A DNA stretch of 64,000 nt from Syntrophales bacterium (GTDB lineage Bacteria; Desulfobacterota; Syntrophia; Syntrophales; UBA2192). The position numbers and the translations under genes were made by a program. The stretch covers positions 19,717 to 83,716 of the forward strand of contig DAIMEJ010000005.1 of NCBI GenBank assembly GCA_036725345.1, read 5' to 3'. How positions within the stretch are numbered: the stretch's first letter is position 1; the number at the start of each line of letters is the position of its first letter. The notes below the pieces were generated by a model that searched no databases, was not told the DNA's origin, and was given only the letters and a program-made list of their open reading frames with translations. Below, piece after piece: positions 13,858-60,992 of the stretch.

Positions 13858-13929
13858 AGGGATTTAACCCCGCGCGGCACACAGGCGATTTTCCGCGCCC
13901 GTCATCACGGTCAAGACGCCGCGCTTAAC

Positions 13930-15225: not shown

Positions 15226-15261
15226 TTATCCTCCATTGAAGGTTGAATTTGCCTTCCACAC

Positions 15262-15329
15262 CGACCACAAAATAAAAAACGGGCGTTGCCTTCCTTATCC
15301 CTCCTCAGAGGGGGAAAGCACGCCCGTTT
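15262..15329 (-). terminator. strong intrinsic terminator immediately upstream of the capsid gene
   Basis: On the minus strand, AAACGGGCGT...(inner CCCCCTCtgagGAGGG)...ACGCCCGTTT followed by TTTATTTT. It lies between the 95-aa ORF stop (15387) and the MCP start (15225). Confidence 0.7.
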
Positions 15330-15386
15330 CAATTTCATGGCGGCTTCTATGTTCTTTTTTATTCATATCACATCCTGACCTGATAT

Positions 15387-15674: not shown

Positions 15675-15684
15675 ATTCTGATCC

Positions 15685-16014: not shown

Positions 16015-16117
16015 ACATACTCCCTCAATCGCTTTGAACAGGGTGAAAACGCACTAAGCGGACAGACCGGGAGCGTTATACGACGGAAAGTTTTTCGAAA
16101 GTCGATGCCCCCCGGCG

Positions 16118-16339
16118 TCATTGAATAAGCCTCGGTTTCCCGTCAATGCCCTGTTCCTCAAGTTCCTGTGCGGCTCTGTCCACAAGATATTGCCCGATGA
16201 TGCCGACGATCCCCTGAAGCGTTATCGCCGCGTTTTGCAGGCCTTCGAGATCGCCCTTTGCCATGAAGCCGTTCACCCACGCCGCGATCCGCTCGACCTC
16301 TTTTCGGTTCTCACGCATGAATTTGTCTGGTTTGTCCAT
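16118..16339 (-). CDS. hypothetical protein (73 aa)
   Basis: ORF sits in operon position between the primase and terS. No family recognised. Confidence 0.5.
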   Translation of the reverse strand: MDKPDKFMRENRKEVERIAAWVNGFMAKGDLEGLQNAAITLQGIVGIIGQYLVDRAAQELEEQGIDGKPRLIQ

Positions 16340-16412
16340 GTTCGTTCCTCTCTGTTTTTTTTAGATTCGCCCCGGCCCGATTCCGTGCGCTCAGACAAGA
16401 TTTCCCTTGTGG

Positions 16413-18428
16413 TTATCCTTCCCGGCTCGGGAAAGGGACACTCGTTGAACATCTGCGCCCCTGTGCGATAATAGGACGCAACGGCTCAAATTGAAGTTTT
16501 GCCCCCCGTGGATTCCGAAACCGGATATGCTGACCCTCGGGCAACCGGATGTCATCAACGATATACCGGACCTTCTTCAGAATGACATAGCCGTCGATGC
16601 CGCCCTGCTCTTTCCACATCGTCATGTGAATTGTCGCCGCATACTCGCTCTGTTGTTTTCCCTTTGCGGTATTCACGCCCTCGTCCTTCTGGATGGCGAC
16701 CAATACCACGCCGCTTCCGACCCTGCTTTTCATCCGTCTTAGATAGGTGTCCAGATTCGGATAATCGTCCGGGCTGAATTGAAACCAATCCAGAATGTTT
16801 ATGGCGTCGGGGACGATCAGGTCGGGATAATCGGCGGCAGGACGGGCGACTTCTTCACGGAAGTGGAAACGCCAATCATTCATCAGGCGGTGAAACCGTG
16901 GATCGGCTTCCTGTTCGAAACGGCGCAGATAGATGTTCACCTCATGCCGATTCAGTTCGGTCGATGTATAGACAATCCGGTGATCGTGGTCGTTCAATCG
17001 GATGAAGTTAAAGAAATAGGTTGATTTCCCTGACCCCGGCTCACCCGCAAGGACGATGAGCGAACCGGGATGGATGTCGGCATATTCGTGAAACCCGCCG
17101 GGAAGGGCGAGGCTGATAGGCTCTACCTGCTCTACATTCCGATAATCCACGAAACCGATGTGCGACAAAACCCGCCGATAAGCCCCGGCCCTCTGCGGAT
17201 GCCGTTCCGCATCGCCCCTCTGCACGGCACGGTGCAGATATGTTTTCGTCCTCACCGTCTTAATTCCCGTCCACCGGGAAACCTCGTCAATGGTCGTCCA
17301 CTTCCCTTCGTTTGCGAGGCAATCCAGAATCTTCCCATAATCAGAAGGCTGTGACCTGAATTGTGACTTCGAGTGACCGTCACAGGGTTGCTGTGACCTG
17401 TTTTCGTCGGCAGTTTCGTTCAAGTCCCCGAAATCATTAGAGGCGGCATTTTTTTCGGGCGTTTCGTCAGCCTGTGACCTGCGTGCGTGCGTATTAAAAG
17501 ATATATTTATATATTCCACATGTGGTGACTGATCCTCTGCGGTATCATCGCCGGGAGCTTGTGACACATTTTGTGACAGGTAACGCCTTGCCCTCTTGAT
17601 CTCATCGGCAAGCCAACGGTGACGGCCCCCGCCCTTCCCCCGGTACTTCAGGCCGCAGGGATAATTCTCGAAGATGTGATAGACGGCCCCCGGCTCTGCG
17701 CCCTGTGACAGCATGGAGCATATCAGGGCGAACCCCGCTTCGGATCGCGAGGGGTACTTCCCGATCGCCCCTTCCGTGACGAAAGCCCGAAGGTCATCCG
17801 AAAAAGTGAAGTCCTCGGGATCGACCTCGACGGGGTTGCCCAGTTCCATGTCGTTGTCGCCGTCGGCTTCCTCGTCTGCGGCAAGGCCCAGAAACCACTC
17901 GGGCGCCTCGGCGATCCGCACATCGAGCGATATTTCATACAGCTTCCCCGTGTCCGGGTGAACAGAGCCGGGAGCGACCACGCATCCCCCGTCGGCCCTG
18001 ATGTCGAAGCCGTGTTCCTTGAACGTCCGGTTGCGGTATCGCGTGCCGTTCTTCGGGTAGCGGAAGTAGTAGTGAAACTTTCCCGATCCTGTCATGACCT
18101 CAAGCGTGGTCGGGAGTCTCCACTTCTGACCCTCGGCGTACTTCCGAAACCGATCAAGATCGTCAATATCGAGAACGATCAGGCCCGATGCGGGACCGCA
18201 GGCGATCCCGGCGTTCTTGCCGATGTACTCACAGCCGTGAAACGGCCTTTGCTCCCTGCACCACTTCTGCCAATCGCTTTCGAAGGGAGCCTTGCCGATG
18301 AGCGGTATTAGGGAAAGGTCTCTCTCGTCGTGTAGCTCCCGCCACAGCAAGGGCGATTTATTTTCTGCGAGTGTTCCGACCTGCTCGGGCGTCAAGTCTT
18401 TCCACTTCCTTTCCGGTTGTTCGTTCAT
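16413..18428 (-). CDS. bifunctional PrimPol-type primase / P-loop replicative helicase
   Basis: Start trimmed to the ATG at 18428, preceded by GGAGGTGG. The N-terminal Prim-Pol pattern is GKAPFESDWQKW...GIACGPASGLIVLDIDD. A low-complexity linker and a wHTH-like segment follow, then Walker A LAGEPGSGKST and a RecA/DnaB-like C-terminal domain. Confidence 0.85.
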   Translation of the reverse strand: MNEQPERKWKDLTPEQVGTLAENKSPLLWRELHDERDLSLIPLIGKAPFESDWQKWCREQRPFHGCEYIGKNAGIACGPASGLIVLDIDDLDRFRKYAEGQKWRLPTTLEVMTGSGKFHYYFRYPKNGTRYRNRTFKEHGFDIRADGGCVVAPGSVHPDTGKLYEISLDVRIAEAPEWFLGLAADEEADGDNDMELGNPVEVDPEDFTFSDDLRAFVTEGAIGKYPSRSEAGFALICSMLSQGAEPGAVYHIFENYPCGLKYRGKGGGRHRWLADEIKRARRYLSQNVSQAPGDDTAEDQSPHVEYINISFNTHARRSQADETPEKNAASNDFGDLNETADENRSQQPCDGHSKSQFRSQPSDYGKILDCLANEGKWTTIDEVSRWTGIKTVRTKTYLHRAVQRGDAERHPQRAGAYRRVLSHIGFVDYRNVEQVEPISLALPGGFHEYADIHPGSLIVLAGEPGSGKSTYFFNFIRLNDHDHRIVYTSTELNRHEVNIYLRRFEQEADPRFHRLMNDWRFHFREEVARPAADYPDLIVPDAINILDWFQFSPDDYPNLDTYLRRMKSRVGSGVVLVAIQKDEGVNTAKGKQQSEYAATIHMTMWKEQGGIDGYVILKKVRYIVDDIRLPEGQHIRFRNPRGAKLQFEPLRPIIAQGRRCSTSVPFPSREG
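17348..17580. other. origin-of-replication-like iteron cluster with AT-rich core, inside the primase coding sequence
   Basis: CTGTGACCTG occurs perfectly at 17348, 17390 and 17471. TGTGAC cores are at 17361, 17559 and 17571. GTGACCGTCAC palindrome at 17372-17382. A 24-nt almost pure A/T run spans 17491-17514. CCACATGTGG palindrome at 17515-17524. Confidence 0.5.
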
Positions 18429-18526
18429 ATCCACCTCCGAAATGGATGTCCGATAGTCAAGGCGCGGGGAGCGGGTCGGAGTTCCCGCCGTCAGCCGATC
18501 GAGCCTACCCCGCACCCATTTTGCCG

Positions 18527-19480
18527 TCACGATAGAAGCCGCTTTTTGTCTTGTTCGTTGTCTGATTCGTGGCGATTTCTATCTCCGTCCAGTTCTGCAA
18601 ATTGTCTCAGGAGCCGAGCCTTCCCTGCGTCAAAACTAAGCCTTGCCGATGTCCCTTCGTATATGTCCGAATTGAAAGTTTCCCTGCGAACAACCAAATG
18701 GTCTATCTGGTCACTCAAGCGCGGCATCATGTCGGCAACATACTGAATGAATGAACCGAACGGTTGTATTTGATAAAGCTTTCCGTCTTGCCCTGTGTCG
18801 GTTGTCTGTTCTGCTTTCTGTTCAACGAAAACATCCATCCGCCTGATTATAATTTGAGCTAACGTTCTTGCCCGTTCAAATGTAGCTTCCTTCCAATTCT
18901 TCGGCGGCTCTTTAGGAAGGATCAAAAGAACCCGTTCAAGCGTTTCAATATAAATCTGCGCTTCAAGGCTATCTTCTATCGAAGATGCTTTGCTTTTCGA
19001 TTGCTCTTTTCTCTGCTTTTCTTTCTCGTAATTTATGGCATTGATAACGGCGGTCTTTGTCGGGATGTCCTCGTTCTCCCTCGCCTGCGCTTTTATTTTC
19101 TCCACCACAGCCGGGTTCTCGGAAATGGCTCGGGCCTGATGCGCTCGCTTATGGTCTATGCCTTCGGGAAGCACTTTTGATGGTGTACCCTTCGGGACAC
19201 CTTTCCGTCCGGTCATCGCTTTATCCCTGCTCGGCAATAGCTCACCGATGCGGCCTTCAATATCGAGAAGAAGTTCCCCCGCATCCTGACCGTCTTTCAG
19301 CGTGGCCTTTCGCTGTTCTTCTGCCATACCTAACTTGTCCATCGCCTTGACCTTCGCCCGGTAATAACTGACAGCCGCTTGCCCAATGAATGACAACGGC
19401 ACAAGGTCATCCAGTTTTCCGGGCAGTAGCTTCTGCGCCTTCACCAGTTTGAAAATCTCTGTGGCTTCTTTTCCCTTCAT
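18527..19480 (-). CDS. hypothetical protein (317 aa)
   Basis: Start trimmed to the ATG at 19480, after AAGGGGG. Charged, helical, and no family recognised. Sits between the AlpA-like gene and the primase. Confidence 0.55.
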   Translation of the reverse strand: MKGKEATEIFKLVKAQKLLPGKLDDLVPLSFIGQAAVSYYRAKVKAMDKLGMAEEQRKATLKDGQDAGELLLDIEGRIGELLPSRDKAMTGRKGVPKGTPSKVLPEGIDHKRAHQARAISENPAVVEKIKAQARENEDIPTKTAVINAINYEKEKQRKEQSKSKASSIEDSLEAQIYIETLERVLLILPKEPPKNWKEATFERARTLAQIIIRRMDVFVEQKAEQTTDTGQDGKLYQIQPFGSFIQYVADMMPRLSDQIDHLVVRRETFNSDIYEGTSARLSFDAGKARLLRQFAELDGDRNRHESDNEQDKKRLLS

Positions 19481-19505
19481 GGTATGCCCCCTTCTTTTTC
19501 TTTTT

Positions 19506-19700
19506 TTATTCCTTGACAACCTCGTTGAGCTTCACACCCGGCGATGCATCGGCCCACGATTCGATTTCGTCACGGAAAAAAATTAACCGTCCACCCGCCT
19601 TCCTGAATGGGATCCGTCGGCGAAGCACAAGGTTCCTGACGGCTCCCGGTGTCCGGTGGAGATAATTGCTCACATGCTGTACCAACCAAATTTCACGCAT
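19506..19700 (-). CDS. AlpA/excisionase-type HTH regulator
   Basis: 64 aa. IWLVQHVSNYLHRTPGAVRNLVLRRRIPFRKAGGRLIFFRDEIESW fits the HTH_17 pattern. Confidence 0.7.
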   Translation of the reverse strand: MREIWLVQHVSNYLHRTPGAVRNLVLRRRIPFRKAGGRLIFFRDEIESWADASPGVKLNEVVKE

Positions 19701-19893
19701 CGGGAAAGATTTCCTTCTCGTCGCAGGTGAGAAGCTTCGCCCACTTCCTGCGTTGCTCTGCCGTCAGAACCTTCCGTCCCCGCAGGACGCGGGACACATC
19801 GGCTTCGTGGATTCCGACCTCGCGTGCAAACTCCCATTGTGACCCGTGGGTTTCGATGATCCGGGCCTTCAGCTTCCTGTTCACATCCTTCAT
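19693..19893 (-). CDS. Cro/XRE-like HTH regulator
   Basis: 66 aa. SQWEFAREVGIHEADVSRVLRGRK is a helix-turn-helix. AGGAG RBS. First gene of the minus-strand operon. Confidence 0.7.
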   Translation of the reverse strand: MKDVNRKLKARIIETHGSQWEFAREVGIHEADVSRVLRGRKVLTAEQRRKWAKLLTCDEKEIFPDA

Positions 19894-19910
19894 GGCTCGC
19901 TCCTATGCTG

Positions 19911-19950
19911 AAAATAAAAAAAGCCGCCCACGCCAAACGGCGTGAACGGC
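19911..19950 (-). terminator. intrinsic terminator just upstream of the Cro-like gene
   Basis: On the minus strand, GCCGttCACGCC-gttt-GGCGTGggCGGC followed by TTTTTTTATTTT. It ends 17 nt before the ATG at 19893. Confidence 0.6.
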
Positions 19951-20076
19951 CTTCCAATTGCGAATTGTGTTTTTTAAAGAGCCATCATTGCAAATGCCGC
20001 TTCACACGCATGGCGGTGTCAACTAACTGCGCTGGGACGAAAAGGGTAATCACATCTGCGATGATGTTCTGAATAA

Positions 20077-20104
20077 ATTTTACTGTGTTATTTCTGAACG
20101 TCAA
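20077..20104 (-). promoter_or_regulatory. candidate sigma-70 promoter reading toward the Cro-like operon
   Basis: On the minus strand, TTGACG (20104-20099), a 16-nt spacer, then TAAAAT (20082-20077). Confidence 0.35.
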
Positions 20105-20241
20105 CAAGAAAATTGCTTATGCCGAAAATACTGCCCTATCTGATGCATCTGATGCATGGAAAGGTGTTGTGAAAATTACTGTGACTCGGGAGGCGAAAAG
20201 CGGGTTTTTTGTGCTTTACCGTACTTTCTGTGATACTCATC

Positions 20242-20286
20242 GAGAAAAAGAAAAAGGGTCGCAAGTCATTGATATACCTGCAACCC
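20242..20286 (-). terminator. element-borne terminator now serving the tRNA-Gly/tRNA-Cys transcript
   Basis: On the minus strand, GGGTTGCA-15 nt loop-TGCGACCC followed by TTTTTCTTTTTC. Homologous with indels to 9674-9708. Confidence 0.55.
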
Positions 20287-20299
20287 TCTGACTTTATTT

Positions 20300-20347
20300 T
20301 GGAGGCGGCAACCGGATTCGAACCGGTGAATAACGGTTTTGCAGACC
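20300..20347. repeat. att direct repeat inside the intact tRNA-Cys
   Basis: Identical to 9722-9769. Confidence 0.9.
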
Positions 20348-20375
20348 GCTGCCTTAGCCACTTGGCTATGCCGCC
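20300..20375 (-). tRNA. tRNA-Cys (anticodon GCA)
   Basis: Reverse complement GGCGGCATAGCCAAGTGGCTAAGGCAGCGGTCTGCAAAACCGTTATTCACCGGTTCGAATCCGGTTGCCGCCTCCA folds as a cloverleaf. Anticodon loop CTGCAAA, discriminator U, encoded CCA. Confidence 0.95.
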
Positions 20376-20384
20376 GTAAATGTC

Positions 20385-20459
20385 TGGAGCGGGCGAACGG
20401 ATTTGAACCGTCGACGTCTACCTTGGCAAGGTAGCACTCTACCGCTGAGTTACGCCCGC
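20385..20459 (-). tRNA. tRNA-Gly (anticodon GCC)
   Basis: Reverse complement GCGGGCGTAACTCAGCGGTAGAGTGCTACCTTGCCAAGGTAGACGTCGACGGTTCAAATCCGTTCGCCCGCTCCA. Anticodon loop TTGCCAA. Confidence 0.95.
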
Positions 20460-20476
20460 TCGAATAGAGGGGATTA

Positions 20477-20504
20477 TTAATAGCAAATCGGCGCATCTTG
20501 TCAA
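20477..20504 (-). promoter_or_regulatory. sigma-70 promoter of the tRNA-Gly/tRNA-Cys operon
   Basis: On the minus strand, TTGACA (20504-20499), a 16-nt spacer, then TATTAA (20482-20477), about 17 nt before the tRNA-Gly 5' end. Confidence 0.5.
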
Positions 20505-20607
20505 TAAAAAATTCTCGAGGGTTCGACGGGCCTGAATGAATCGGGTTGCGCCTCTTTTCAGAGGCGCAACCCGTGCGACACACCGCCCATGACCGCGTTT
20601 TTTCCCC

Positions 20608-20636
20608 TTGAAAAATGCGGGCTTTTTGGTTATAGA
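20608..20636 (+). promoter_or_regulatory. sigma-70 promoter of tRNA-Val
   Basis: TTGAAA (20608-20613), a 17-nt spacer, then TATAGA (20631-20636), 12 nt before the tRNA-Val 5' end. Confidence 0.55.
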
Positions 20637-20648
20637 ATGCACTCATTC

Positions 20649-20723
20649 GGGCGGTTAACTCAGCGGGAGAGTGCTACCTTCACACGGTAGAAGTCACTGG
20701 TTCAAATCCAGTACCGCCTACCA
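20649..20723 (+). tRNA. tRNA-Val (anticodon CAC)
   Basis: GGGCGGTTAACTCAGCGGGAGAGTGCTACCTTCACACGGTAGAAGTCACTGGTTCAAATCCAGTACCGCCTACCA. Anticodon loop TTCACAC, encoded CCA. Confidence 0.95.
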
Positions 20724-48777: not shown

Positions 48778-49257
48778 ATGAAAAACAATCCTGTGAAATA
48801 CATGATGTATCTATCGGCCTTTTTGTTCGCCATCCTGTCTTACCAGGCCATCGCTCATGCGACCCTCTACAAGTGGGTCGATGAAAAGGGCGTCCTCCAT
48901 ATGACCGATACGCCGCCCGACGCCGCGACAGCCCGTAAATACGTCGTCGAGAAGACGGGGGCCGATGAATCAGGCACAGCCCAGGCCGCCGAAAAGAAGG
49001 ACGTGAAACCCTCCCGGCACGAGGTCGTGATTTACACCACACCCACGTGCCCATACTGCAAATACGCGAAAGAGTTTCTTTCGCAAAAAGGCGTCTTTTA
49101 CACGGAGAAGGATGTGTCTGCTGACCCCGCGGCCAAAGACGAGATGATGGCCCTCACGGGCAAGGATGCCGTTCCCGTCATCGTCATCGACGGTGAGCCG
49201 ATCGTGGGGTTCAATGCACAGAAGATCGAGGAGAAACTCGGCCTCGTCAAAAAATGA
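48778..49257 (+). CDS. DUF4124-glutaredoxin fusion protein, exported or membrane-anchored
   Basis: N-terminal hydrophobic segment, LYKWVDEKGVLHMTDTPP (DUF4124-like), then VVIYTTPTCPYCKYAKEFL...VPVIVIDGEPIVGFN (CPYC glutaredoxin fold). Confidence 0.75.
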   Translation: MKNNPVKYMMYLSAFLFAILSYQAIAHATLYKWVDEKGVLHMTDTPPDAATARKYVVEKTGADESGTAQAAEKKDVKPSRHEVVIYTTPTCPYCKYAKEFLSQKGVFYTEKDVSADPAAKDEMMALTGKDAVPVIVIDGEPIVGFNAQKIEEKLGLVKK

Positions 49258-49332: not shown

Positions 49333-49722
49333 TCACGCCCCGCAGATCACGGAGATCTCTATAGAGGCATCCCTCGGGAGCCTGGCCACCTGCAAGGTTT
49401 CACGGGCAGGGAGAATGTCCGCAAAATAGCGATTGTAGACTTCGTTGAATTTTGCGAAATTGCCCATGTCGCTCAGGAACACCGAGGCTTTCAGAACGTT
49501 CCGCAGTGTCAGGCCGCCCGCCTCGACGACGGCCTTGATGTTCTCGAGAACCAGGGTGACCTGCTCTTCGAAGCTCCCCCGCGACATCTCGTTCGTTTTC
49601 GGGTCGATGGGGATCATCCCCGATACAAAGAGGAGATCGCCGAATTTGACGGCCTGCGCGTAAGGGCCGATGGCCTTCGGGGCCCCCGGTGTGCTGACAA
49701 TCCTTCTTTCTTTTGCAGACAT
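49333..49722 (-). CDS. ridA: RidA-family reactive intermediate deaminase
   Basis: Start trimmed to the ATG at 49722, after AAGGAG. APKAIGPYAQAV...LFVSGMIPIDP and ARETLQVARLPRDASIEI motifs. Confidence 0.9.
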   Translation of the reverse strand: MSAKERRIVSTPGAPKAIGPYAQAVKFGDLLFVSGMIPIDPKTNEMSRGSFEEQVTLVLENIKAVVEAGGLTLRNVLKASVFLSDMGNFAKFNEVYNRYFADILPARETLQVARLPRDASIEISVICGA

Positions 49723-49862
49723 GGCATTTTCTCCTTCTCGGTTCCGTCCATGAAAGTCGGAAACCGGGTTGCGACATAGAGACCCCCCCGGATCGACCCT
49801 CCCGGGGATCTCGACCACGAGACCTCCTTCTGCACCCGGGCCGAAAAACCCGGCGGGCGGGA

Positions 49863-50171
49863 TCATTTCATCAGCTTCTTCGACTGCCCGACGTACTCTT
49901 CCTCGGTAATCGTCCCGTCACCGTTGGCATCCCAGTACCTGCAATTCTTCTCTGCCGTCTTTTTGTCCTTCCAGACGGCGTAGCATTCCTGGGTGCTGAG
50001 TTTCCCGTCTTTGTTGGTGTCGGCGGAAGAAAGGATGGATTTGAAAGCTTCCTTTGTCAAGGCATCCGAGGGACCGGCACCCTGCTGTGCGGCCGTGATA
50101 CCGGCAGCCACACCGAAGATGAAAACCATTAAAAAGAAAAAAGCAGATGCAGTAAAAACGGACTTTTTCAT
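49863..50171 (-). CDS. secreted EF-hand calcium-binding protein
   Basis: Start at the ATG at 50171, after AAGGAGG. Signal peptide, and two EF-hand loops DTNKDGKLSTQE and DANGDGTITEEE. Confidence 0.75.
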   Translation of the reverse strand: MKKSVFTASAFFFLMVFIFGVAAGITAAQQGAGPSDALTKEAFKSILSSADTNKDGKLSTQECYAVWKDKKTAEKNCRYWDANGDGTITEEEYVGQSKKLMK

Positions 50172-51535: not shown

Positions 51536-52225
51536 ATGAATATCGGCGGCTTGCACAAAGTTTCCCTCATCGATTACCCGGGCAAGATCTGCGCGGTCAT
51601 CTTCACGCAGGGGTGCAATTTCCGGTGCGCCTACTGCCACAACCCCGAGCTCGTGGACCCGAAATTGTTCGAGCCCCCGATGCCGCACGAGGAGATCTTC
51701 GGTTTTCTCGACAAGCGCCGCGGAAAGCTGGATGCCGTCGTCGTCACGGGCGGGGAACCCACGCTCCAGCCGAACCTGATCCCTTTTCTGAAGCGCGTGA
51801 AGGAGATGGGCTACCTCATCAAAATCGACACGAACGGCGCCCTGCCCGAGATCCTGGAGAATCTCATCGTCCACAGGCATGTGGACTATATCGCCATGGA
51901 CATCAAGGCCCCGCCGGAAAAATACTCCCGCGTGACCCGGGCGGAGGTCGATGTCGAACGGATCAGGCGAAGCATCGACCTCATCACGACCTCGGGCATT
52001 CCCTGCGAATTCCGGACCACGCTCGTCCAGTCGCTCCTCGACCAGGAGGACATTCGTAAAGTCGGCGACATGATTAAAGGCGCCAGGCGGTTCGTCCTCC
52101 AGAGGTTTGTCCCGTCGAAGACGCTCTCCTCGGATTTCCTTCAGGCGTCCACGTACGCAGACCGCGAACTGGAAGTCTTCAAGAAAGACCTTGAATCGCA
52201 TATCGAGGATGTCGTTATCCGGTAG
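51536..52225 (+). CDS. nrdG: anaerobic ribonucleoside-triphosphate reductase activating protein (radical SAM)
   Basis: SLIDYPGKICAVIFTQGCNFRCAYCHNPELV (CxxxCxxC) and a VVVTGGEPTLQP motif. Confidence 0.9.
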   Translation: MNIGGLHKVSLIDYPGKICAVIFTQGCNFRCAYCHNPELVDPKLFEPPMPHEEIFGFLDKRRGKLDAVVVTGGEPTLQPNLIPFLKRVKEMGYLIKIDTNGALPEILENLIVHRHVDYIAMDIKAPPEKYSRVTRAEVDVERIRRSIDLITTSGIPCEFRTTLVQSLLDQEDIRKVGDMIKGARRFVLQRFVPSKTLSSDFLQASTYADRELEVFKKDLESHIEDVVIR

Positions 52226-52349: not shown

Positions 52350-55223
52350 TTAAATCATGATCGCCGAGGTGGCCTCCTCCAGCGTCGTGATGCCGGTCTG
52401 CACCTTCTGGATGGCATCCTCTTTCAGGGTCTTGAGTTTTTCCGACTTGACGGCGGCCTGCAGGATTTCCTGCTCAGACCAGCCCTTGATGATCATTTCC
52501 CGGATCATCTCGTCGATGACCAGAACCTCGAAGATACCGATTCTCCCCTTGTACCCCGTGTGGTTGCAGGCCTCACAGCCCTTGCCGTAAGAGAACGTCA
52601 GGCCTTCCCTGTCCGTGAGACCCCAGAGATCCAGGACCTGCGCGGCCGGCCTGTATGACTCACGGCACTGAGGGCAGATCGTCCTGACCAGCCGCTGGGA
52701 CACGGAAGCGAGAAGAACAGAGGCGACCAGAAATCGCTCAACGCCGAGGTTCAGAAGGCGCGTGATGGCGCCCGCGGCGTTGTGATCCTGAAGGGCACTG
52801 AAAACGCGGCAACTGAGGGACGCCTGCATGGCCATGGCGGCTGTTTCGGCCTCCCGCAACTCGCCGACCATGATGACATCGGGCGCGTGTCGCATGACGG
52901 ATCTCATCCCGTCGGAGAAGCTCATGCCCGCCCGGCGGTTCAGCTGAATCTGCGAAATGCCCTCGAAATAATACTCCACGGGGTCTTCGACGGTCATGAT
53001 GTGGGTGTCGGGCCTTCGGATTTCCTTGAGCATGGCGTAGAGGGTCGTGGTCTTCCCGCTGACGGCCGGCCCGCAACAGAGGATCAACCCGTTCGGCCTG
53101 TGGAGGACCGACTCGAGCTTGTCCCGCTCGGCCCGTGACATCCCCAGGCGGGAAAGATCGTACATGTCATCGCTGACATCCTGGAGGTTCAGGATGATGT
53201 TTTCCCCGTGGACAGCCGGGATGGAGGAAACCCGGATGCCGTATTCACGATCCTCCATCTTCACCGTAAATCGGCCATCCTCGGCAACGTTCGCCGCAGC
53301 CATTTCCATCTCGGCAAGCTTCCTGATGCGGGAGACGATGGGCAGGAAAGTCGATTTGGGCAGGTCGGTGACCTCGCTCAATTTCCCGCCGATGCGGAGC
53401 CGCACCTGGAGGTTGCTGGCCTGCGGGTTGAAGAGGACCTCACTGGCCCCTTCCTGAATCGCGCGGGCGATGATGGAGCTCACCAGTCGGACCACCATCT
53501 TGTCTTCCGCCCATTCCTGACGCGCGGCTATTTTTCGATCCCCCCTCTCGGAAAGGGTGATCTCCTTCTCGGCGGCCCCTTCCGAAACATTCACGGCAGC
53601 AAAGGCCTGTCGGGTCTCGGGTGAAATAACGGGGGAGTTGTACAGGCTGTTGAGCAGCAGGTCCATTTCATTTTCCGTGCAGACGACCCACTGCGTCTCT
53701 CCCTCAATGGCCAGCTTCAGGGTCTCCAGGGCGGCCGTGTCCGTGGGATCCGTCACGGCAATTTTAAGGACCCTGCCCTCCATGCCCAGGGGGGCCGCCC
53801 TATACTTCCTGGCCATCTTCACGGGGACGAGGTGGGCAAAACCGATATCGAGCGGATGACGATCGGGCGAGTATTTGTCCAAGTTGAATTTCAAGCTGAA
53901 GAGGTCCACTATACCGTCCTCCGACACCCACCCTCTTTGAATCAGCATATCTTTCAGTTCCTGGCCGGTTTTCGACCGTTCCGCAAGGGCTGTCTGAAGC
54001 TGGGCCTCGTTGAGGAGATTCGCGGTGACCAGGAGGCGTCCGAGATCCATTTCAGCGGCAGGCACCCTCCCCTCCGCATCCGGCGTCTTATCGAGAACCG
54101 CCGGCTCCCCGATGGCCTTCACAAAGTGCGGGAAGTCTTCCAGCTGCAGCGTTTCTCCTTTCGCCACGGCTGCCGCCCTCGAGAGAAGGTTTTCCATCTC
54201 CGTGACATTGCCGGGCCATGCGTACTTGAGAAAAGCGTCCATGACGTCCGTGGAGACGGCGACGACATCTTTCTGGAGGTCGTGGGCTATCTTCTTGAGC
54301 AGGTAGTCCACCAGAAGAGGGATATCCTCTTTCCTCTCCCGGAGGGGCGGGATATCGATGCTCACGACGTTCAAGAAATAATAGAGATCATCCCGGAATT
54401 TCCCCTCCTTGACGAGGGCAGGGAGATTCCCGTTCGATGCGGCAATAACTCGCGGCCGCAGCTTGATTTTTTCCCTGCCCCCGGTCCGCTCGAATTCCCG
54501 CTCCTGCAGCACCCGCAGAAGCCTGGACTGCATGTTCAGGGATATCCCGCCGATGTCGTCCAGAAAGAGCGTTCCGTCATCGGCGGCCTCGAACTGACCG
54601 TATTTCCGGCTCTTCGCGCCGGTGAAGGTGCCTTTTTCGTAGCCGAAAAGATCCAGCTCAAGAGACATCTCCGATTGGGATGAGCAATTGATGGCAATGA
54701 AGGGCCGGTTTCCCGCCGTGCTCTTGTGGATCACGCGCGCAACCAGCTCTTTGCCCGTTCCCTCCTCGCCCTGGATTAACACAGCCGCGTCGGCGGGCCT
54801 GACCTTCGCGATTTGATCGCATATCAACCGCACGGCCTTGCTCTGACCGATGACGTCGGGATAGATTTCCCGCGGTTCCACCTTGCTCAGGAGGTCTGTG
54901 ACCTTTTCGAAGACCACTTTGTATTCCTTGATGTCGTCCCCCTGAGGGGTCAGGGTGTTTCTCGCCGGCGTCTTGGCGAAAACGGGCAATTCAATGACCC
55001 TTTTGATGAACCCCCGGATGGGCCTCATGACGAGCCAGGTGATGACGAGAGCGATGGCGAAAGCGAAAAGTGCGATGGCGATCCCCCACACTCTCACATA
55101 TTCATCGGGATTGGTGAGGAGTCGGAAGATCTGATAGGTCATGATGACCGCAATGAGCGAGATCCCGGTGAAGATGAGCGGGATGAGGACATAGAGGCTG
55201 ATTTTATACTTCGACTTTTTCAT
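52350..55223 (-). CDS. membrane-anchored fusion protein: sigma-54-activator AAA+ domain + T2SSE_N domain + GspE/PilB-type secretion ATPase
   Basis: One 957-aa ORF. Two N-terminal TM helices. Residues about 123-350 are an NtrC-type AAA+ module (GEEGTGKE, GTFTGA, LFLDDIG, RVIAASN, PPLRERKEDI). Residues about 391-520 are T2SSE_N-like. Residues about 575-957 are a GspE/PilB ATPase (GPAVSGKTTTLY, TVEDPVEY, VIMVGELREAETA, CPQC...CEAC). There is no C-terminal Fis-type HTH. Confidence 0.8.
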   Translation of the reverse strand: MKKSKYKISLYVLIPLIFTGISLIAVIMTYQIFRLLTNPDEYVRVWGIAIALFAFAIALVITWLVMRPIRGFIKRVIELPVFAKTPARNTLTPQGDDIKEYKVVFEKVTDLLSKVEPREIYPDVIGQSKAVRLICDQIAKVRPADAAVLIQGEEGTGKELVARVIHKSTAGNRPFIAINCSSQSEMSLELDLFGYEKGTFTGAKSRKYGQFEAADDGTLFLDDIGGISLNMQSRLLRVLQEREFERTGGREKIKLRPRVIAASNGNLPALVKEGKFRDDLYYFLNVVSIDIPPLRERKEDIPLLVDYLLKKIAHDLQKDVVAVSTDVMDAFLKYAWPGNVTEMENLLSRAAAVAKGETLQLEDFPHFVKAIGEPAVLDKTPDAEGRVPAAEMDLGRLLVTANLLNEAQLQTALAERSKTGQELKDMLIQRGWVSEDGIVDLFSLKFNLDKYSPDRHPLDIGFAHLVPVKMARKYRAAPLGMEGRVLKIAVTDPTDTAALETLKLAIEGETQWVVCTENEMDLLLNSLYNSPVISPETRQAFAAVNVSEGAAEKEITLSERGDRKIAARQEWAEDKMVVRLVSSIIARAIQEGASEVLFNPQASNLQVRLRIGGKLSEVTDLPKSTFLPIVSRIRKLAEMEMAAANVAEDGRFTVKMEDREYGIRVSSIPAVHGENIILNLQDVSDDMYDLSRLGMSRAERDKLESVLHRPNGLILCCGPAVSGKTTTLYAMLKEIRRPDTHIMTVEDPVEYYFEGISQIQLNRRAGMSFSDGMRSVMRHAPDVIMVGELREAETAAMAMQASLSCRVFSALQDHNAAGAITRLLNLGVERFLVASVLLASVSQRLVRTICPQCRESYRPAAQVLDLWGLTDREGLTFSYGKGCEACNHTGYKGRIGIFEVLVIDEMIREMIIKGWSEQEILQAAVKSEKLKTLKEDAIQKVQTGITTLEEATSAIMI

Positions 55224-55746
55224 AAGGCTGCCTTTGGACCTCCCGGAAAAATGCGGCGCGGGTCCGCCATGGACGGTACCGCCTGATTGGAGCAGGAAGA
55301 CGTCTCCACTATCCTCCGAGGATCAATCAGAGACGCTTCTCGTATCTTTCACCTGCATTTGAAACTTATTTAACAATTTCTGCAACAATTGCAATAGGTT
55401 GAAAGTATGAATTTTATTCGTATTTTAATGTAATCACATTTAATAATAAAGTGTGAACTTATACCACATTCATCCGCTCTGATCCAGCCTGTCGTGCTCG
55501 AGCGAAGACCCTTGTCAGAGGCCAATCTCCGCGCCTAACGGTCCGGTCAGGGCCACGGGCCGACCATCTACGAAAAAAGTATTACCCGATCGGCCGCCCC
55601 CGGCCCCTTTCCGCGCATCGCCCCGGATCAGGGGACGTAATGGGTTGACAATTCGACAGCGTTTTTCTACCCTGCCCAAGGATCCGGCCTGAAACGCCCG
55701 TGCCGGGTTACCCGCTCTTGTCGAGGAAAAAGGATCCTGCACGATC

Positions 55747-57051
55747 ATGACCGAACGAACCCAAAAAGCCGTTTTGGGCTGGGCCATGTACGACTGGGCC
55801 AATTCCGCTTTCGCCACCACCGTCATGGCCTCCTTCTTCCCCATCTTCTTCAAGCAGTACTGGAGCGCCGGCGCGGACCCCACTGTCAGCACGGCGAATC
55901 TGGGGCTCGCCAACTCCACAGCGAGCGCCTTCATCGCCGTCGCGGCGCCGGTGCTGGGCGCCATTGCCGACCGGGGGCAATCCAAGAAAAAGTTTCTTTT
56001 CTTTTTTGCCTGCATCGGAATCGTCATGACCTGCTGTTTCTACTTCATCCCGAGCGGACAATGGCAGGTCGCCGCCGTCGTTTATGTGCTCGCCATGATC
56101 GGCTACTCGGGGAGTTTCATTTTCTACGACGCCCTCCTCACCACCGTCGCGGCGGAGAAGGATACCGACTTCGTCTCTTCGCTGGGCTTTGCACTCGGGT
56201 ACCTGGGCGGGGGGATCCTTTTTGCGCTGAACGTCTGGATGACACTGAAGCCGGACACCTTCGGACTCCCCGACGCGGGAGAGGGCGTCAGAATCTCCTT
56301 TCTTACCGTGAGTGCCTGGTGGGCCCTTTTCTCCCTGCCCCTTTTCCTCTTCGTCAAAGAGACGGGCCGTCCGCAGGATCGGACGACGGCGCAGGTCATT
56401 GTCGAGGGTCTGCGCCAGCTGGAGAGCACCTTCCGCGAGATTCGCCACCTGAAGATCATCTTCATCTTTCTTGCCGCCTACTGGTTTTACATCGACGGGG
56501 TGAATACCGTCATCGTGATGGCCCTGGATTACGGATTGTCCATCGGGCTTCGGCCGGATGACCTGATCGTGGCGCTTCTCATGGTCCAGTTTATCGGCTT
56601 CCCCTCGGCCATCGCCTTCGGGAAAATCGGGGAAAAGATCGGGTCGAAGACGGCTATCCTGATCGGCATCGCCGTCTATCTCTTCATCACGGCCTACGGC
56701 GTTTCCATCGGCACCAAGGAAGAATTTTTCGTCATGGCCTGTATCATCGGCCTCGTCCAGGGCGGTGTCCAGGCCCTGAGCCGCGCTCTATTCGCCCGGA
56801 TCATCCCCGTCGACAAATCAGCCGAGTATTTCGGTTTCTACAACATGATGAGCCGGTTTGCCACCATCAAGGGACCGCTCCTCATCGCGGGGACCATCTA
56901 CCTGCTGAGGTCTATGGGCTATTCGGGTCTGCTGGTCTCCCGGATGAGCATCCTGTCCGTTGCCATCCTCTTTCTGATCGGGGGGGTTCTCATCTCCTTC
57001 GTCGATGAAAAGCGGGGAAAGGAAGAGTCAGCGTACCTGGCGCGAACATGA
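55747..57051 (+). CDS. MFS transporter, UMF1/Atg22-like family
   Basis: 434 aa with about 12 TM helices. N-terminal GWAMYDWANSAFATTVMASFFPIFF is typical of the UMF1 family. Confidence 0.8.
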   Translation: MTERTQKAVLGWAMYDWANSAFATTVMASFFPIFFKQYWSAGADPTVSTANLGLANSTASAFIAVAAPVLGAIADRGQSKKKFLFFFACIGIVMTCCFYFIPSGQWQVAAVVYVLAMIGYSGSFIFYDALLTTVAAEKDTDFVSSLGFALGYLGGGILFALNVWMTLKPDTFGLPDAGEGVRISFLTVSAWWALFSLPLFLFVKETGRPQDRTTAQVIVEGLRQLESTFREIRHLKIIFIFLAAYWFYIDGVNTVIVMALDYGLSIGLRPDDLIVALLMVQFIGFPSAIAFGKIGEKIGSKTAILIGIAVYLFITAYGVSIGTKEEFFVMACIIGLVQGGVQALSRALFARIIPVDKSAEYFGFYNMMSRFATIKGPLLIAGTIYLLRSMGYSGLLVSRMSILSVAILFLIGGVLISFVDEKRGKEESAYLART

Positions 57052-59843: not shown

Positions 59844-60134
59844 CGGCCACCTCGTTCTCCGCTCCCCCGGGCGCAGGGCGCGCCGGGGTTGTCGGGGCTT
59901 CCATGATGTTGAATAGAGGCTCGTCCGTCAGTGTGTCAAGAAAAATTCCTGTCCCCGCATCCGCCCGGAGAGTAAAAAAACCCCTGTCAATCCGATAGTT
60001 ACTCAGTGTAAAAAATTTGTGGTATGAATTTTGCTCGTAATTCGTTCTTGAGGACCTGACCGCTCGACGGCAGGTACCTCTGAACATCTGATGGGAGACC
60101 TAAAATCCCCGAACCGCCCGAGTCACCGGCCGAT

Positions 60135-60992
60135 ATGGAAACCATCGCTCTTCAAAAATTCGGCGAATTCCAGGTCGAGACCCATGAAGACCTCGCCCGT
60201 CTGAGGGAGATCGAAACTCAGATTCTCGACAAGATGAACCTGGGTTTCTCCCCCGAAGTCATATCGATCCTCGACGATGAGGACGCCCGCCAGGAGGACA
60301 TCGAAAAGATCAAGCTGAAGCTCCGGCAGGATGTTCTCTCCCGTCTGATCGGCCGCGCGAATCTCGTCTCGCATTTCGGAAAAACAAAAACAGGGGAGTC
60401 CCAGCAGTTTCTGAACGTGGTGATGCGGCTGGGCATGAAACCGGCAAAAGTCTATATCCTGGCTTTTTCCCTCTATTTTTCAAGTCCGGAACTGGAGGAA
60501 CTGGCGGCCAGGAGTTTTTCCATGTCCATCATCGGCAGGATTCTCGCAAGACAGCTGGGTTTGAACGCGCTCGACCAGGACCGGGTGGAACTGGGCGCAC
60601 TGCTGCTCGAAATGGGCAGAATTCCGATCGTTCTGTACGAAAAGCAAAACCATCAGAAGCTGGGGGGTGATTTCACCACCAGATACCACACTTATTTCGG
60701 CGTCCGGATGGTGCAGAAGTATTCGCTCCCCGATTATCTCGCCGGCGTCATCCTCAACCGGTCCTTCGGCATCGACGGGAACGGTTTTTCGGCAACGGCC
60801 GTCGTCGATCTTGCCCACTGCGTCGTGGAACGAAGTTTCACGCGTTCGGGAAAATTTGTCGTCCAATCCCAGAGCCAGGTCGCCAGCCAGACCGACGAGA
60901 CCCTCCTGTCCACCATCAGCAACGCCTTCCAGACCATCGGATTGAGAAAATACCTGGAAATCAAAACGCCTTCCAGGCCCGCCGTCAGATAA
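60135..60992 (+). CDS. HDOD-like domain protein (degenerate)
   Basis: Helical protein. The LGALLLEMGRIPIVL segment aligns by eye with the HDOD GLLHDIGKL region but lacks the His-Asp pair. Weak call. Confidence 0.4.
   Translation: METIALQKFGEFQVETHEDLARLREIETQILDKMNLGFSPEVISILDDEDARQEDIEKIKLKLRQDVLSRLIGRANLVSHFGKTKTGESQQFLNVVMRLGMKPAKVYILAFSLYFSSPELEELAARSFSMSIIGRILARQLGLNALDQDRVELGALLLEMGRIPIVLYEKQNHQKLGGDFTTRYHTYFGVRMVQKYSLPDYLAGVILNRSFGIDGNGFSATAVVDLAHCVVERSFTRSGKFVVQSQSQVASQTDETLLSTISNAFQTIGLRKYLEIKTPSRPAVR

Follow-up and report, generated by a model that had tools for sequence, protein, structure and literature searches.

What can a protein do when one half of it resembles a sigma-54 transcription activator and the other half an ATPase that assembles type IV filaments? 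The question is raised by a gene in a 64,000-nucleotide stretch of a Syntrophales bacterium (assembly GCA_036725345.1, contig DAIMEJ010000005.1, positions 19,717 to 83,716 of the forward strand), the whole of which is called the window hereafter. Positions 52350-55223 of its minus strand carry an uninterrupted open reading frame (ORF) of 957 amino acids, with an ATG start, that joins a membrane-anchored enhancer-binding protein (EBP) to an ATPase of the MshE/PilB type. This fusion is a real and conserved gene, confined to Syntrophales bacteria, and we cautiously favour the view that it is a regulatory double pseudo-ATPase of a pilus/sigma-54 circuit, derived from paralogues of pilus-operon genes.

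Profile searches recognised both modules. In Pfam the protein matched Sigma54_activat (PF00158) at residues 124-289 (E-value 7e-58, 195.4 bits against a cut-off of 20.2), AAA_lid_14 at residues 295-370 (4.5e-22, 78.1 bits against 27), MshEN (PF05157) at residues 451-530 (4e-13) and T2SSE (PF00437) at residues 572-951 (4e-99, 332 bits against 24.9), while HTH_8, the Fis-type helix-turn-helix (HTH), gave no match at an E-value of 0.1 or below. Since the NCBIfam PilB model (TIGR02538) aligned nearly end to end, its positions 2-560 of 564 being covered by residues 394-953, the C-terminal module corresponds to an entire PilB/MshE-type protein and extends beyond the ATPase core. The scores against the equivalog models were below their cut-offs, at 434.9 against 675.65 for PilB and 443.9 against 630.25 for GspE (TIGR02533, aligned to residues 465-953). 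In the EBP half are found Walker A GEEGTGKE (152-159), the L1 loop GTFTGA (198-203), Walker B LFLDDIG, in which the acidic pair is DD, RVIAASN and PPLRERKEDI; in the ATPase half are found GPAVSGKTTTLY (718-729), VEDPVEY, VIMVGELRE, SALQDHN and the two cysteine pairs CPQC (850-853) and CEAC (883-886), a tetracysteine conserved across the fusion family.

Hydropathy places two hydrophobic segments at residues 8-30 and 43-67 approximately, and an AlphaFold2 (AF2) model, built on a composite alignment of 115 sequences, has N-terminal helices at 10-36 and 42-78. The loop between the two transmembrane (TM) helices counts some 5-10 residues, which suggests a hairpin anchor or an intramembrane contact surface rather than a periplasmic sensor domain. 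In the juxtamembrane segment that follows, the model continues the second helix to about residue 78 and adds a low-confidence loop (84-96) and a helix (97-114); the GDD, VF and DLLSKVE motifs found there are invariant in the family and are also present in the stand-alone EBP described below. No Pfam family was matched in this segment at an E-value of 10 or below, and HAMP, considered as its identity, was rejected after finding no match at that threshold in the window protein, a clade-B member and a stand-alone EBP. Domains were mostly predicted with a local confidence (pLDDT) of 70-90, joined by low-confidence linkers at 84-96, 371-382 and 530-573, and the predicted template-modelling score (pTM) was 0.37; the model fits a beads-on-a-string layout. 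The features of the gene, which include substituted catalytic positions taken up below, are as follows.

52350-55223, minus strand: whole fusion ORF, membrane-anchored EBP plus MshE/PilB-type ATPase (ORF, Pfam and NCBIfam, recurrence, whole-gene selection)
55116-55196, minus strand: TM helix 1, residues about 10-36 (hydropathy, AF2, many family-invariant residues; homologous to TM helix 1 of the pilus-operon EBP)
55023-55100, minus strand: TM helix 2, residues about 42-67 (hydropathy, AF2, homology to the pilus-operon EBP)
54864-55022, minus strand: juxtamembrane helix-loop-helix, residues 68-120, RPIRGFIK ... GDDIKEYKVVFEKVTDLLSKVE (AF2, family conservation)
54357-54854, minus strand: bacterial EBP (bEBP) AAA+ domain, residues 124-289 (Pfam, residue table)
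54615-54632, minus strand: L1 loop GTFTGA, within the AAA+ domain
54555-54560, minus strand: DD of the EBP Walker B, within the AAA+ domain
54375-54377, minus strand: Phe of RxDxxxF, at the position of PspF R168, within the AAA+ domain
54114-54341, minus strand: AAA+ lid, AAA_lid_14, residues 295-370, with the sensor II Arg in PPLRER (Pfam)
54048-54113, minus strand: junction linker, residues 371-392, standing where the parental EBP has its linker from lid to HTH_8 (AF2, alignment)
53886-54047, minus strand: MshEN N-subdomain, residues 393-446, with two degenerate 24-residue cyclic di-GMP (c-di-GMP) half-motifs (NF053729)
53634-53873, minus strand: MshEN/T2SSE_N C-subdomain, residues 451-530 (PF05157)
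53505-53633, minus strand: flexible linker from MshEN to the ATPase core, residues 531-573 (pLDDT below 50 at 530-573)
52371-53510, minus strand: PilB/GspE/MshE-type ATPase core, N2D plus CTD, residues 572-951 (Pfam)
53187-53189, minus strand: Asn at the arginine-finger position R286 (residue table)
52788-52790, minus strand: Gln at the His-box position H420, with H413 deleted or replaced (residue table)

The sensor II Arg is present in 20 of 20 full-length fusions. The junction linker has a pLDDT below 50 at 371-382 and is similar in length in the two clades of the family, with an unconserved sequence; the linker between MshEN and the ATPase core differs from clade to clade in both length and sequence. 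A first, sequence-only reading of this DNA had described the same continuous ORF with two TM helices, an AAA+ domain, an MshEN-like domain and a secretion ATPase, had quoted GEEGTGKE, GTFTGA, LFLDDIG, SALQDHN and the tetracysteine, and had noted that the EBP module ends without a Fis-type domain. All of this was borne out by the ORF, hydropathy, AF2 and profile searches, each motif lying where it had been placed.

The identical 957-residue product is encoded on at least 20 contigs from independent samples, and 19 further loci from other species or metagenomes, 45-88% identical, have an intact fusion of 940-972 residues with the same junction. A word-indexed search retrieved about 16 full-length clusters of this architecture, in which clade A, to which the window protein belongs, is 63-88% and clade B about 45% identical to it. 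With a profile specific for the N-terminal part of the family, a relative was detected in 18 of 185,579 species (one genome per GTDB species), all of them Syntrophales/Syntrophaceae metagenome-assembled genomes (MAGs), 3 with a clade-A and 15 with a clade-B member, and every locus with enough DNA held an intact fusion ORF in the same length range. An exhaustive phmmer search of 1.84 billion representatives at 50% identity returned P0006 and P0121 as its only full-length matches. Pairwise ratios of nonsynonymous to synonymous substitution rates (dN/dS, NG86) were 0.06-0.34 over all modules and 0.09-0.24 for the whole gene, with 0.06-0.20 for the EBP half and 0.06-0.22 for N2D plus CTD, indicating that both halves are maintained by selection.

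This recurrence, rather than inspection of reads, settles the concern that two adjacent ordinary genes had been merged by an assembly or sequencing error through a missed stop codon or frameshift, a chance that is now negligible. The same junction is found in different species, separate EBP and ATPase genes stand in this arrangement at no locus, and the parental genes described below lie in the opposite order with a T2SSF gene between them. The observation that could speak for such an error is the only split copy known, the second copy of a tandem duplicate at locus L021, where the fusion is frameshifted into ORFs of 611 and 407 amino acids beside an intact copy. That locus (L021 5500-16897) is a 6.6-kb tandem direct repeat of 99% identity, which covers an S1-domain gene, a 140-amino-acid gene, the fusion and a receiver gene, and it reflects either an artefact of assembly or a duplication in the very recent past accompanied by decay.

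Fusions of the two modules in reverse order were also looked for. Nine matches of about 1000 amino acids with two matching stretches were scanned with Pfam and none was an EBP-PilB protein; they were tandem T2SSE-T2SSE, T2SSF-T2SSE, multi-MshEN PilF-like or triple-EBP proteins. Among the proteins met in this representative search are a tandem T2SSE-T2SSE group of about 1000 amino acids (P0122, P0124, P0126 and P0130), a T2SSF-T2SSE protein (P0127), two proteins with three Sigma54_activat domains (P0140, which also has FHA, and P0142) and an ATPase of the MshE type that, judged from its sequence, seems to have a receiver domain at its C-terminus (P0134).

The origin of the two halves can be traced to one kind of operon. 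Residues 1-365 of the fusion are 49% identical (BLASTP) to the same residues of a 441-amino-acid EBP encoded at locus L028, and the match spans both TM helices and the GDD...VFEQVT..LSKVE juxtamembrane segment; this EBP has Sigma54_activat, the lid, HTH_8 at 390-430 and canonical motifs. Searching with the C-terminal half returned a large family of stand-alone proteins of about 568 amino acids with MshEN and T2SSE, 47-50% identical, in Syntrophales and other Desulfobacterota, and its closest stand-alone relative is P0270, at 48% identity, which L028 encodes as its MshE-type ATPase. The source of P0270 is MAG GCA_900174595.1, which also carries the fusion member P0005. Gene order at L028 runs from a PilM-like gene with two small proteins to a secretin that passes the PilQ model, an ExeA/MshM-like AAA_22 ATPase, P0270, T2SSF, the 441-amino-acid EBP and a prepilin. 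The order MshE-like ATPase, T2SSF, TM-EBP was seen at 4 of 4 loci (L028, L030, L031 and L032, from Syntrophales and Desulfobacteraceae), with a pilin gene after the EBP in two of these four. It is well supported that type IV pilus-like (MSHA-like) clusters of Syntrophales and related Desulfobacterota run from secretin through an ExeA/MshM-like ATPase, the MshE-type ATPase and the T2SSF platform to a membrane-anchored sigma-54 activator. The sigma-54 -24/-12 pattern is matched at exactly two places in L028. Both lie on the operon strand, each about 320 nt upstream of a gene, which is the first pilus gene for one and the pilin gene for the other.

Because of the match of the EBP half to the L028 EBP, the match of the ATPase half to P0270 and the recurring operon order, it is well supported that this lineage-specific 'Rosetta-stone' fusion is a paralogue of a pilus-operon membrane EBP in which HTH_8 has been swapped for a paralogue of a full-length MshE-type ATPase. 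The sequence-only reading had taken the halves to come from unrelated processes; in this lineage that is wrong, as they are paralogues of genes of one operon separated by the platform gene only, and the TM hairpin of the fusion descends from the EBP of that operon. In a neighbour-joining tree the EBP halves of all fusions are monophyletic, with 51% mutual identity against 41-42% to stand-alone EBPs. The PilB halves are 41% identical to one another and 47-48% identical to stand-alone ATPases, which share 70% among themselves. A single fusion event is therefore suggested by the EBP half and the shared junction position.

The stand-alone EBPs of these operons form a family of their own, with at least 120 clusters at 58% or higher full-length identity (L028 12134-13459, L030 9001-10341, L031 9001-10380, L032 9001-10338 and P0383-P0502). 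Their layout of two TM helices, juxtamembrane helix-loop-helix, AAA+ and HTH_8 in about 441-446 amino acids has no REC, GAF or PAS domain, and one may speculate that the conserved TM hairpin senses an intramembrane signal such as the pilin pool.

Catalytic and contact residues were compared in an alignment of the 20 fusions of full length (5 from clade A and 15 from clade B) with stand-alone relatives, 113 of them MshE-type ATPases and 118 TM-EBPs, the ATPase half being numbered as Geobacter metallireducens PilB (5TSG chain numbering minus 20, an offset that reproduces T327, E357, T411, H413 and H420 as in PMC5424180) and the EBP half as PspF.

R271, arginine finger: stand-alone R 113; clade A R 4, K 1; clade B L 9, V 4, Q 2
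R286, arginine finger: stand-alone R 113; clade A N 4, R 1; clade B H 12, N 3
K331, Walker A: stand-alone K 113; clade A K 4, R 1; clade B K 14, R 1
E357, Mg, Asp box: stand-alone E 113; clade A E 5; clade B K 11, R 4
ATPase Walker B Gly: stand-alone G 113; clade A G 5; clade B K 9, E 6
E395, catalytic: stand-alone E 113; clade A E 4, D 1; clade B E 15
H413, His box: stand-alone H 113; clade A absent; clade B H 11, R 4
H420, His box: stand-alone H 113; clade A Q 4, T 1; clade B Q 7, P 6, T 1, H 1
EBP K42, Walker A: stand-alone K 118; clade A K 5; clade B K 15
EBP N64, Glu switch: stand-alone N 113, S 5; clade A N 2, S 2, D 1; clade B N 15
EBP F85, L1 loop: stand-alone F 118; clade A F 5; clade B F 9, Y 5, H 1
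EBP T86, L1 loop: stand-alone T 118; clade A T 5; clade B T 15
EBP D107, Walker B: stand-alone D 118; clade A D 5; clade B H 13, N 2
EBP E108, Walker B: stand-alone E 118; clade A E 3, D 2; clade B Q 15
EBP sensor I Asn: stand-alone N 118; clade A N 4, R 1; clade B D 15
EBP R162, R-finger: stand-alone R 118; clade A R 5; clade B R 15
EBP D164: stand-alone D 118; clade A D 5; clade B D 15
EBP R168: stand-alone R 118; clade A L 4, F 1; clade B R 15

In its EBP half, the window protein has DD in Walker B and R277-x-D279-xxx-F283 in place of RxDxxxR. Its ATPase core retains Walker A, the Asp box, the catalytic Glu and the tetracysteine, with K724, E750, E788 and R664 kept and N679 at the R286 position, and its His box reads SLSC-RVFSALQDHN against ALTGHRVLSTxHTND in the relatives, so that H413 is absent and H420 is Gln. 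Of the columns in the ATPase half that show 95% or higher conservation among stand-alone proteins, 88 of 219 are altered in at least one fusion clade. In the L1 loop, G, T, G and A are retained in 20 of 20 full-length fusions, where the loop reads GTFTGA or GS[FYH]TGA. Position 2 of the loop seems tolerant in this lineage, since stand-alone HTH_8 EBPs carry either GAFTGA (83) or GSFTGA (35); Thr at this position, as in the GTFTGA of the window protein, occurs only in fusions.

The consequences of such changes are known from homologues. In PilB, E357 coordinates Mg and both R286 and H420 touch the gamma-phosphate; across the superfamily, conservation of the arginine fingers, the Asp-box Glu and the catalytic Glu is complete (PMC5424180). 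For PspF, the RxDxxxR motif has its genuine R-finger in R162, variants at R168 show kcat values of about 0.1-0.4 with Km above 3 mM, substitutions of R162, D164 or R168 give constitutive hexamers, and variants defective in cis (Walker B) and in trans (R162/R168) restore each other's ATPase in mixed rings (PMC3419264). PspF E108Q is a hydrolysis-defective constitutive hexamer that nevertheless engages and remodels RNA polymerase (RNAP)-sigma54 in an ATP-dependent manner, and alternating defective subunits in PspF rings are tolerated for DNA remodelling (PMC4132715).

Taken together, the alignment gives good support to the view that after fusion both sites retained their P-loops and lost catalytic or trans-acting residues, with losses that differ by clade. 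By analogy with PspF and PilB, both modules would bind nucleotide and hydrolyse it poorly or not at all, hydrolysis presumably being no longer selected after fusion while the folds and many surfaces appear to be still constrained. Of the two outcomes that the sequence-only reading had put forward, a degenerate regulatory pseudo-ATPase is well supported, the RxDxxxF motif, the Asn at R286 and the loss of both His-box histidines adding to its support, and a motor coupled to sigma-54 is not supported. Public annotations call members of the family 'type IV pilus assembly protein PilB' or 'ATPase, T2SS/T4P/T4SS family'. Because the defining catalytic features of both parents fail and the PilB and GspE cut-offs are missed, the protein should be called neither 'PilB' nor 'sigma-54 activator'.

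A further input could come from c-di-GMP, the ligand of MshEN domains. The window protein has DLGRLLVTANLL...LAER followed by ELKDML...SLKF, and the NF053729 model of the MshE-type motif scored it at 50.7 bits against a cut-off of 38, over model positions 2-50 of 53; scores were 38-51 in clade A, 59-60 in clade B and 60.6 in the stand-alone P0270. By the motif definition of PMC5013675, motif 1 (DLG...N...R) and motif 2 (ELK...G...K) of the window protein fail the strict form, and they also fail the relaxed form [RKPN]hG...[GAS]...[QNKRYWST] at positions 1 and 10 of motif 1 and positions 1 and 3 of motif 2. Clade A has R9, G18, Q32, R38, G40 and Q61 replaced, in the window protein by D, N, R, E, K and K respectively. 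In clade B, motif 2 is strictly canonical and motif 1 deviates at the turn Gly alone, a position that is non-Gly in about half of the stand-alone relatives; dN/dS of the MshEN region is 0.07-0.12 in clade B and 0.21-0.34 in clade A. The motif loss noted in the sequence-only reading thus stands at the level of residues, but the domain still passes its model and the motif is canonical in the sister clade. Since MshEN binding is mostly hydrophobic and single changes of polar residues shift affinity at most five-fold (PMC5013675), binding of c-di-GMP by the window protein is likely weakened or uncertain, and may still occur.

The clades also differ in their upstream regions. Each of the 17 clade-B loci has an element with the GG-N10-GC spacing of sigma-54 promoters, TGGTAC-N5-NTGCA (TGGTAT in L022), on the same strand as the fusion gene and 308-381 nt before its ATG (95 nt in L019). 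In 15 clade-B loci, the near-consensus TGGTACGGATATTGCT or a close variant lies upstream of a convergent gene for a 127-amino-acid CheY-like receiver. Matches to the sigma-54-type pattern numbered 40 in 699 kb against about 5 expected from base frequencies, and about 7 of them lay outside the upstream sites of the fusion and receiver genes. For clade A no sigma-54-type element was found upstream of the fusions, the window included: TGGCAC-N5-TTGCW with up to 2 mismatches gave 14 matches in the window against about 21 expected, and the sole upstream match (55690-55705) is without the -12 GC and is unconserved in clade A. Upstream of the window's fusion gene lies the following candidate, by consensus match only.

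55367-55394, minus strand: sigma-70-like promoter candidate, -35 TTGCAA and -10 TAAATA, about 145 nt upstream of the ATG

This block is conserved in 5 of 6 aligned clade-A upstream regions, and an equivalent TTGCAA-N16/17-TAnnGT block (also given as TAnnnT) is present in clade B. The long AT-rich leader was considered as a possible riboswitch or another RNA of known kind, which was rejected, Rfam at its gathering threshold giving only three tRNAs in the window and an E-value search of the clade-B leader giving chance-level matches only.

Other elements were seen around the clade-B genes. In L004 the CheY-like gene (12947-13330, minus strand) has its TGGTACGGATATTGCT site at 13549 (minus strand), about 220 nt upstream, a layout shared with 14 other clade-B loci; the receiver may be a functional partner of the clade-B fusion, the pairing being conserved in clade B and absent in clade A. 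Short blocks, CCATCCTT and GAAAAC, were noticed by eye upstream of both clade-B promoters, for example at about 9650-9690 and 13560-13700 in L004, next to each other at the fusion promoter and with about 50-60 nt between them at the receiver promoter. A common regulator may bind there, though their assignment as a shared activator site was set aside, since the L028 pilin promoter has neither block and both were picked out by eye alone. A third sigma-54-like element, TGGCACGnnnnGTGCA, is conserved 3.7-4.0 kb upstream of the clade-B fusion, near opposite-strand RtcB/archease genes, at these plus-strand positions.

L009 1259, plus strand: TGGCACGnnnnGTGCA site
L014 2620, plus strand: TGGCACGnnnnGTGCA site
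L016 6029, plus strand: TGGCACGnnnnGTGCA site
L024 3079, plus strand: TGGCACGnnnnGTGCA site
L025 6128, plus strand: TGGCACGnnnnGTGCA site

From its residues and relatives, the fusion most likely acts as a regulator rather than as a motor. It would be a membrane-tethered, nucleotide-binding and hydrolysis-impaired regulatory scaffold, neither a pilus motor nor a classical enhancer-dependent activator. Its EBP-derived ring would form a constitutive hexamer of low turnover, as the equivalent PspF mutants do, and could engage sigma-54 through the near-consensus L1 loop, co-assemble with the competent EBP paralogue of the pilus operon, or both. The MshE-derived ring would serve as a hexameric scaffold, with c-di-GMP as an additional input in clade B, and may touch the pilus platform or active MshE; the outcome would be a tuning of sigma-54-dependent pilus gene expression, of pilus assembly, or of both. 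The version that we favour is modulation through competent paralogues, in mixed rings with the TM-EBP, possibly with MshE or the platform and possibly with sigma-54 directly. It is favoured because lesions in cis (clade B) and in trans (clade A) would cripple homo-hexamers and only half-cripple mixed rings, because bEBP hetero-hexamers have precedents, and because the highly conserved TM hairpin is common to the fusion and the TM-EBP. With degenerate c-di-GMP motifs and no sigma-54 promoter, clade A looks like a less signal-connected version.

Several observations weigh against this view of the fusion. The loss of hydrolysis is extrapolated from mutagenesis of distant homologues, PspF and Geobacter PilB, and clade A retains Walker A, the Walker B Asp, R162 and D164 in its EBP half as well as the Walker A Lys and the catalytic Glu in 4 of 5 and E357 in 5 of 5 PilB halves, so that slow turnover is possible. 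Of the 15 full-length clade-B members, 5 have Tyr and 1 has His in place of the L1-loop Phe, a drift that weakens models needing productive sigma-54 contact at this loop. The clade-A fusion has no sigma-54-type element upstream, as described above, and is flanked by no conserved partner gene, and co-occurrence of the fusion with a canonical pilus operon was seen in one genome. The tree of PilB halves was discarded as proof of one fusion event, the fusions not forming one clade in it, an ambiguity attributed to acceleration on both long branches inside a very conserved family. Finally, the AF2 monomer, with its low pTM and low-confidence linkers, gives no information on module orientation or ring stacking.

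Other explanations share parts of the same evidence. One, which we hold to be unlikely, is an anti-sigma-54 factor: a ring of EBP halves able to bind ATP and dead for hydrolysis would stably bind either the holoenzyme or region I of sigma-54 and keep it at the membrane, the amount held would depend on c-di-GMP and the PilB-derived ring, and the sigma-54 promoter of the clade-B gene would provide negative feedback. Such feedback is typical of anti-sigma factors, and the promoter element stands upstream in every clade-B locus, the membrane anchor is present, the DNA-binding domain is absent and the L1 loop keeps its G, T, G and A throughout. The HQ or NQ Walker B of clade B is moreover the natural counterpart of PspF E108Q, but this variant still remodels the holoenzyme, which goes beyond mere sequestration (PMC4132715), and since R168 substitutions other than Lys leave PspF without a stable sigma-54 complex (PMC3419264), clade A, with Leu or Phe, would make a poor trap. 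The L1 loop of clade B speaks against trapping as well, since 6 of 15 full-length members have Tyr or His there instead of Phe. The prior is also low, as we know of no natural anti-sigma-54 factor.

About as improbable is that the fusion acts as a brake or placeholder in the pilus machine, where the MshE-derived half would replace an active MshE hexamer on the T2SSF platform or the PilM-like protein and gate extension, with the EBP-derived half as no more than a membrane-anchored oligomerisation module and sigma-54 uninvolved. The completeness of the MshE/PilB half, the purifying selection on N2D plus CTD, a P-loop and tetracysteine kept where catalytic residues are missing, and the clade-B receptor motif for c-di-GMP, which regulates MshE-type ATPases, would all suit this role. 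It leaves unexplained that constraint on the EBP half is no weaker than on the remainder of the protein and that its contact loop is near consensus, which is unexpected for a mere anchor; the altered near-invariant MshE columns perhaps include docking surfaces, and the gene lies outside pilus clusters at every fusion locus examined. Less probable still is a catalytically active bifunctional protein, that is, an activator without a DNA-binding domain, acting from the membrane or in solution like FlgR, CtcC or FleT and joined to an assembly ATPase that still works. Neither Walker A motif is damaged, the residues listed above as allowing slow turnover persist in clade A, all modules are under strong purifying selection and bEBPs without D domains are known (PMC7175178). 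Against it, the window protein is without R286, H413, H420 and R168, all invariant in the 113 or 118 stand-alone relatives and important in PilB or PspF, and other members carry Lys to Arg in Walker A, Glu to Asp at the catalytic position, E357 to Lys or Arg, and HQ in Walker B, changes which argue that hydrolysis is not under selection in the family; platform, pilin and secretin genes are also missing nearby. Mixed-ring regulation, a sigma-54 trap, a pilus brake and residual activity cannot be separated by sequence.

A bolder form of the favoured regulatory role is that the fusion physically couples the state of the type IV pilus machine to sigma-54 transcription, the dead rings serving as a checkpoint; we regard this as a long shot. 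Docking on idle pilus platforms, or sensing of c-di-GMP, would fall to the dead MshE-like ring, and the EBP ring, likewise dead and constitutively hexameric, would at the membrane either trap sigma-54 or poison the activator specific to the pilus. If true, this would be the first natural anti-sigma-54 or anti-activator checkpoint, comparable to FlgM/sigma-28 in flagella, and a natural case of AAA+ subunits that complement each other, dead in cis in clade B and in trans in clade A, of a kind previously made only in the laboratory.

The fusion of two genes from one operon is classic evidence that their products cooperate, and the present one implies a direct functional link between a type IV filament assembly ATPase and the sigma-54 activator of the same operon, a link of which we know no earlier description. 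Regulation of sigma-54 is believed to pass almost wholly through its activators, and a sigma-54 trap or activator poison, if real, would add a new layer of control. Pili of syntrophic Desulfobacterota have been linked to interspecies electron transfer. The fusion is rare and evolutionarily informative, and it offers a testable link between pilus assembly and sigma-54 control. The two clades offer natural experiments in AAA+ mechanism, a Walker B Glu-to-Gln type lesion against an RxDxxxR lesion, and the membrane-anchored bEBPs in which two TM helices replace the usual REC, GAF or PAS input deserve attention as a large family that seems to be uncharacterised. Even as a decaying paralogue with a minor role, the fusion would be a clean and well-documented case of double pseudo-enzyme evolution, with the reservation that it is confined to uncultured Syntrophales and that its proposed function comes from sequence.

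The surroundings of the gene in the window agree with the neighbours named in the sequence-only reading, nrdG and an MFS gene, with no pilus or secretion genes nearby.

51536-52225, plus strand: convergent downstream gene, above the cut-off of the NrdG2 model (209.9 against 131 bits)
55747-57051, plus strand: divergent upstream gene, MFS/ATG22-type transporter

Precomputed Pfam labels covering nearly the whole window include no pilus, secretion or other EBP gene and describe housekeeping genes plus one small island resembling a mobile element. At 5 of 5 fusion loci with called genes and Pfam labels, no platform (T2SSF), pilin or secretin gene was found within 10 kb on either side, and a search for conserved operon partners gave none common to both clades. 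A DUF4124-glutaredoxin gene lies about 2-4 kb from the fusion in both clades (window 49333-49866 and 48778-49257; L004 7300-7773), which is probably residual synteny, the neighbourhoods being otherwise different between clades.

The island spans window positions 10707-20720, beside three tRNA genes, and could be a phage satellite or cryptic prophage remnant. It also holds an HTH_17 Xis/AlpA-like ORF and several small ORFs without a family.

10707-11804, minus strand: tyrosine integrase
13930-15225, minus strand: Phage_capsid
16413-18530, minus strand: Prim-Pol
20303-20375, minus strand: tRNA gene
20388-20459, minus strand: tRNA gene
20649-20720, plus strand: tRNA gene

Elsewhere in the window a sigma-54-type element, TGGTATGAATTTTGCT, is found at 60020-60035 (plus strand), about 115 nt upstream of a 285-amino-acid gene without a Pfam family (about 60135-60992, plus strand), and a similar element is present at 3808 (minus strand) in the related locus L012.

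How, then, does the fusion compare with known systems? With bEBPs such as NtrC1, ZraR and PspF it shares the AAA+ domain and lid (about 50-55% identity by eye to ZraR and NtrC1), with Walker A, a GAFTGA-type L1 loop, R162, D164 and sensor II, and it differs from them in Walker B (DD in the window, HQ or NQ in clade B), in the RxDxxxF/L of clade A and in the L1 loop, which is GTFTGA or GS[FYH]TGA. Unlike the pilus-operon EBP, it has an MshE-type ATPase where HTH_8 would be, and its gene lies outside a pilus cluster. With assembly ATPases, namely Vibrio cholerae MshE, G. metallireducens PilB (5TSG) and Thermus thermophilus PilF (6F8L), it is collinear over its full MshE-type length, including MshEN, N2D, CTD and the tetracysteine; matches to PDB chains had E-values of 1e-96 to 1e-105 and ran end to end with Geobacter PilB and Thermus PilF. 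Like these enzymes the window protein retains Walker A, both Asp-box Glu and the catalytic Glu; unlike them it has Asn at R286, has lost H413 and H420, has the polar and Gly contacts of MshEN replaced, carries an N-terminal membrane EBP and is encoded with no adjacent platform, pilin or secretin gene.

Among bEBPs, precedents for hetero-hexamers are HrpR/HrpS, FleQ/FleT and the VnfA paralogues (PMC9542535), and FleT, which works with FleQ in Cereibacter/Rhodobacter sphaeroides, is without R and D domains (PMC7175178). Like FleT, the fusion has no DNA-binding domain and has a catalytically competent EBP paralogue in the same genome, and by this analogy it may hetero-oligomerise with a partner EBP. 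FleT, HrpR/HrpS and the VnfA paralogues, however, have presumably kept their catalytic motifs and are soluble and unfused to another ATPase, unlike the fusion. Closest in their lesions are the engineered PspF variants E108Q and R168A/K/E/H, whose natural counterparts are the Gln of clade B at E108 and the Leu or Phe of clade A at R168, with the differences that clade B also has His or Asn at D107 and that the fusion is a 957-residue membrane protein. A full-text literature search found no description of EBP-PilB fusions or of membrane-anchored pilus-operon EBPs. The domains themselves are thus already known, and what is new is the architecture that unites them and the pseudo-enzyme state of both halves.

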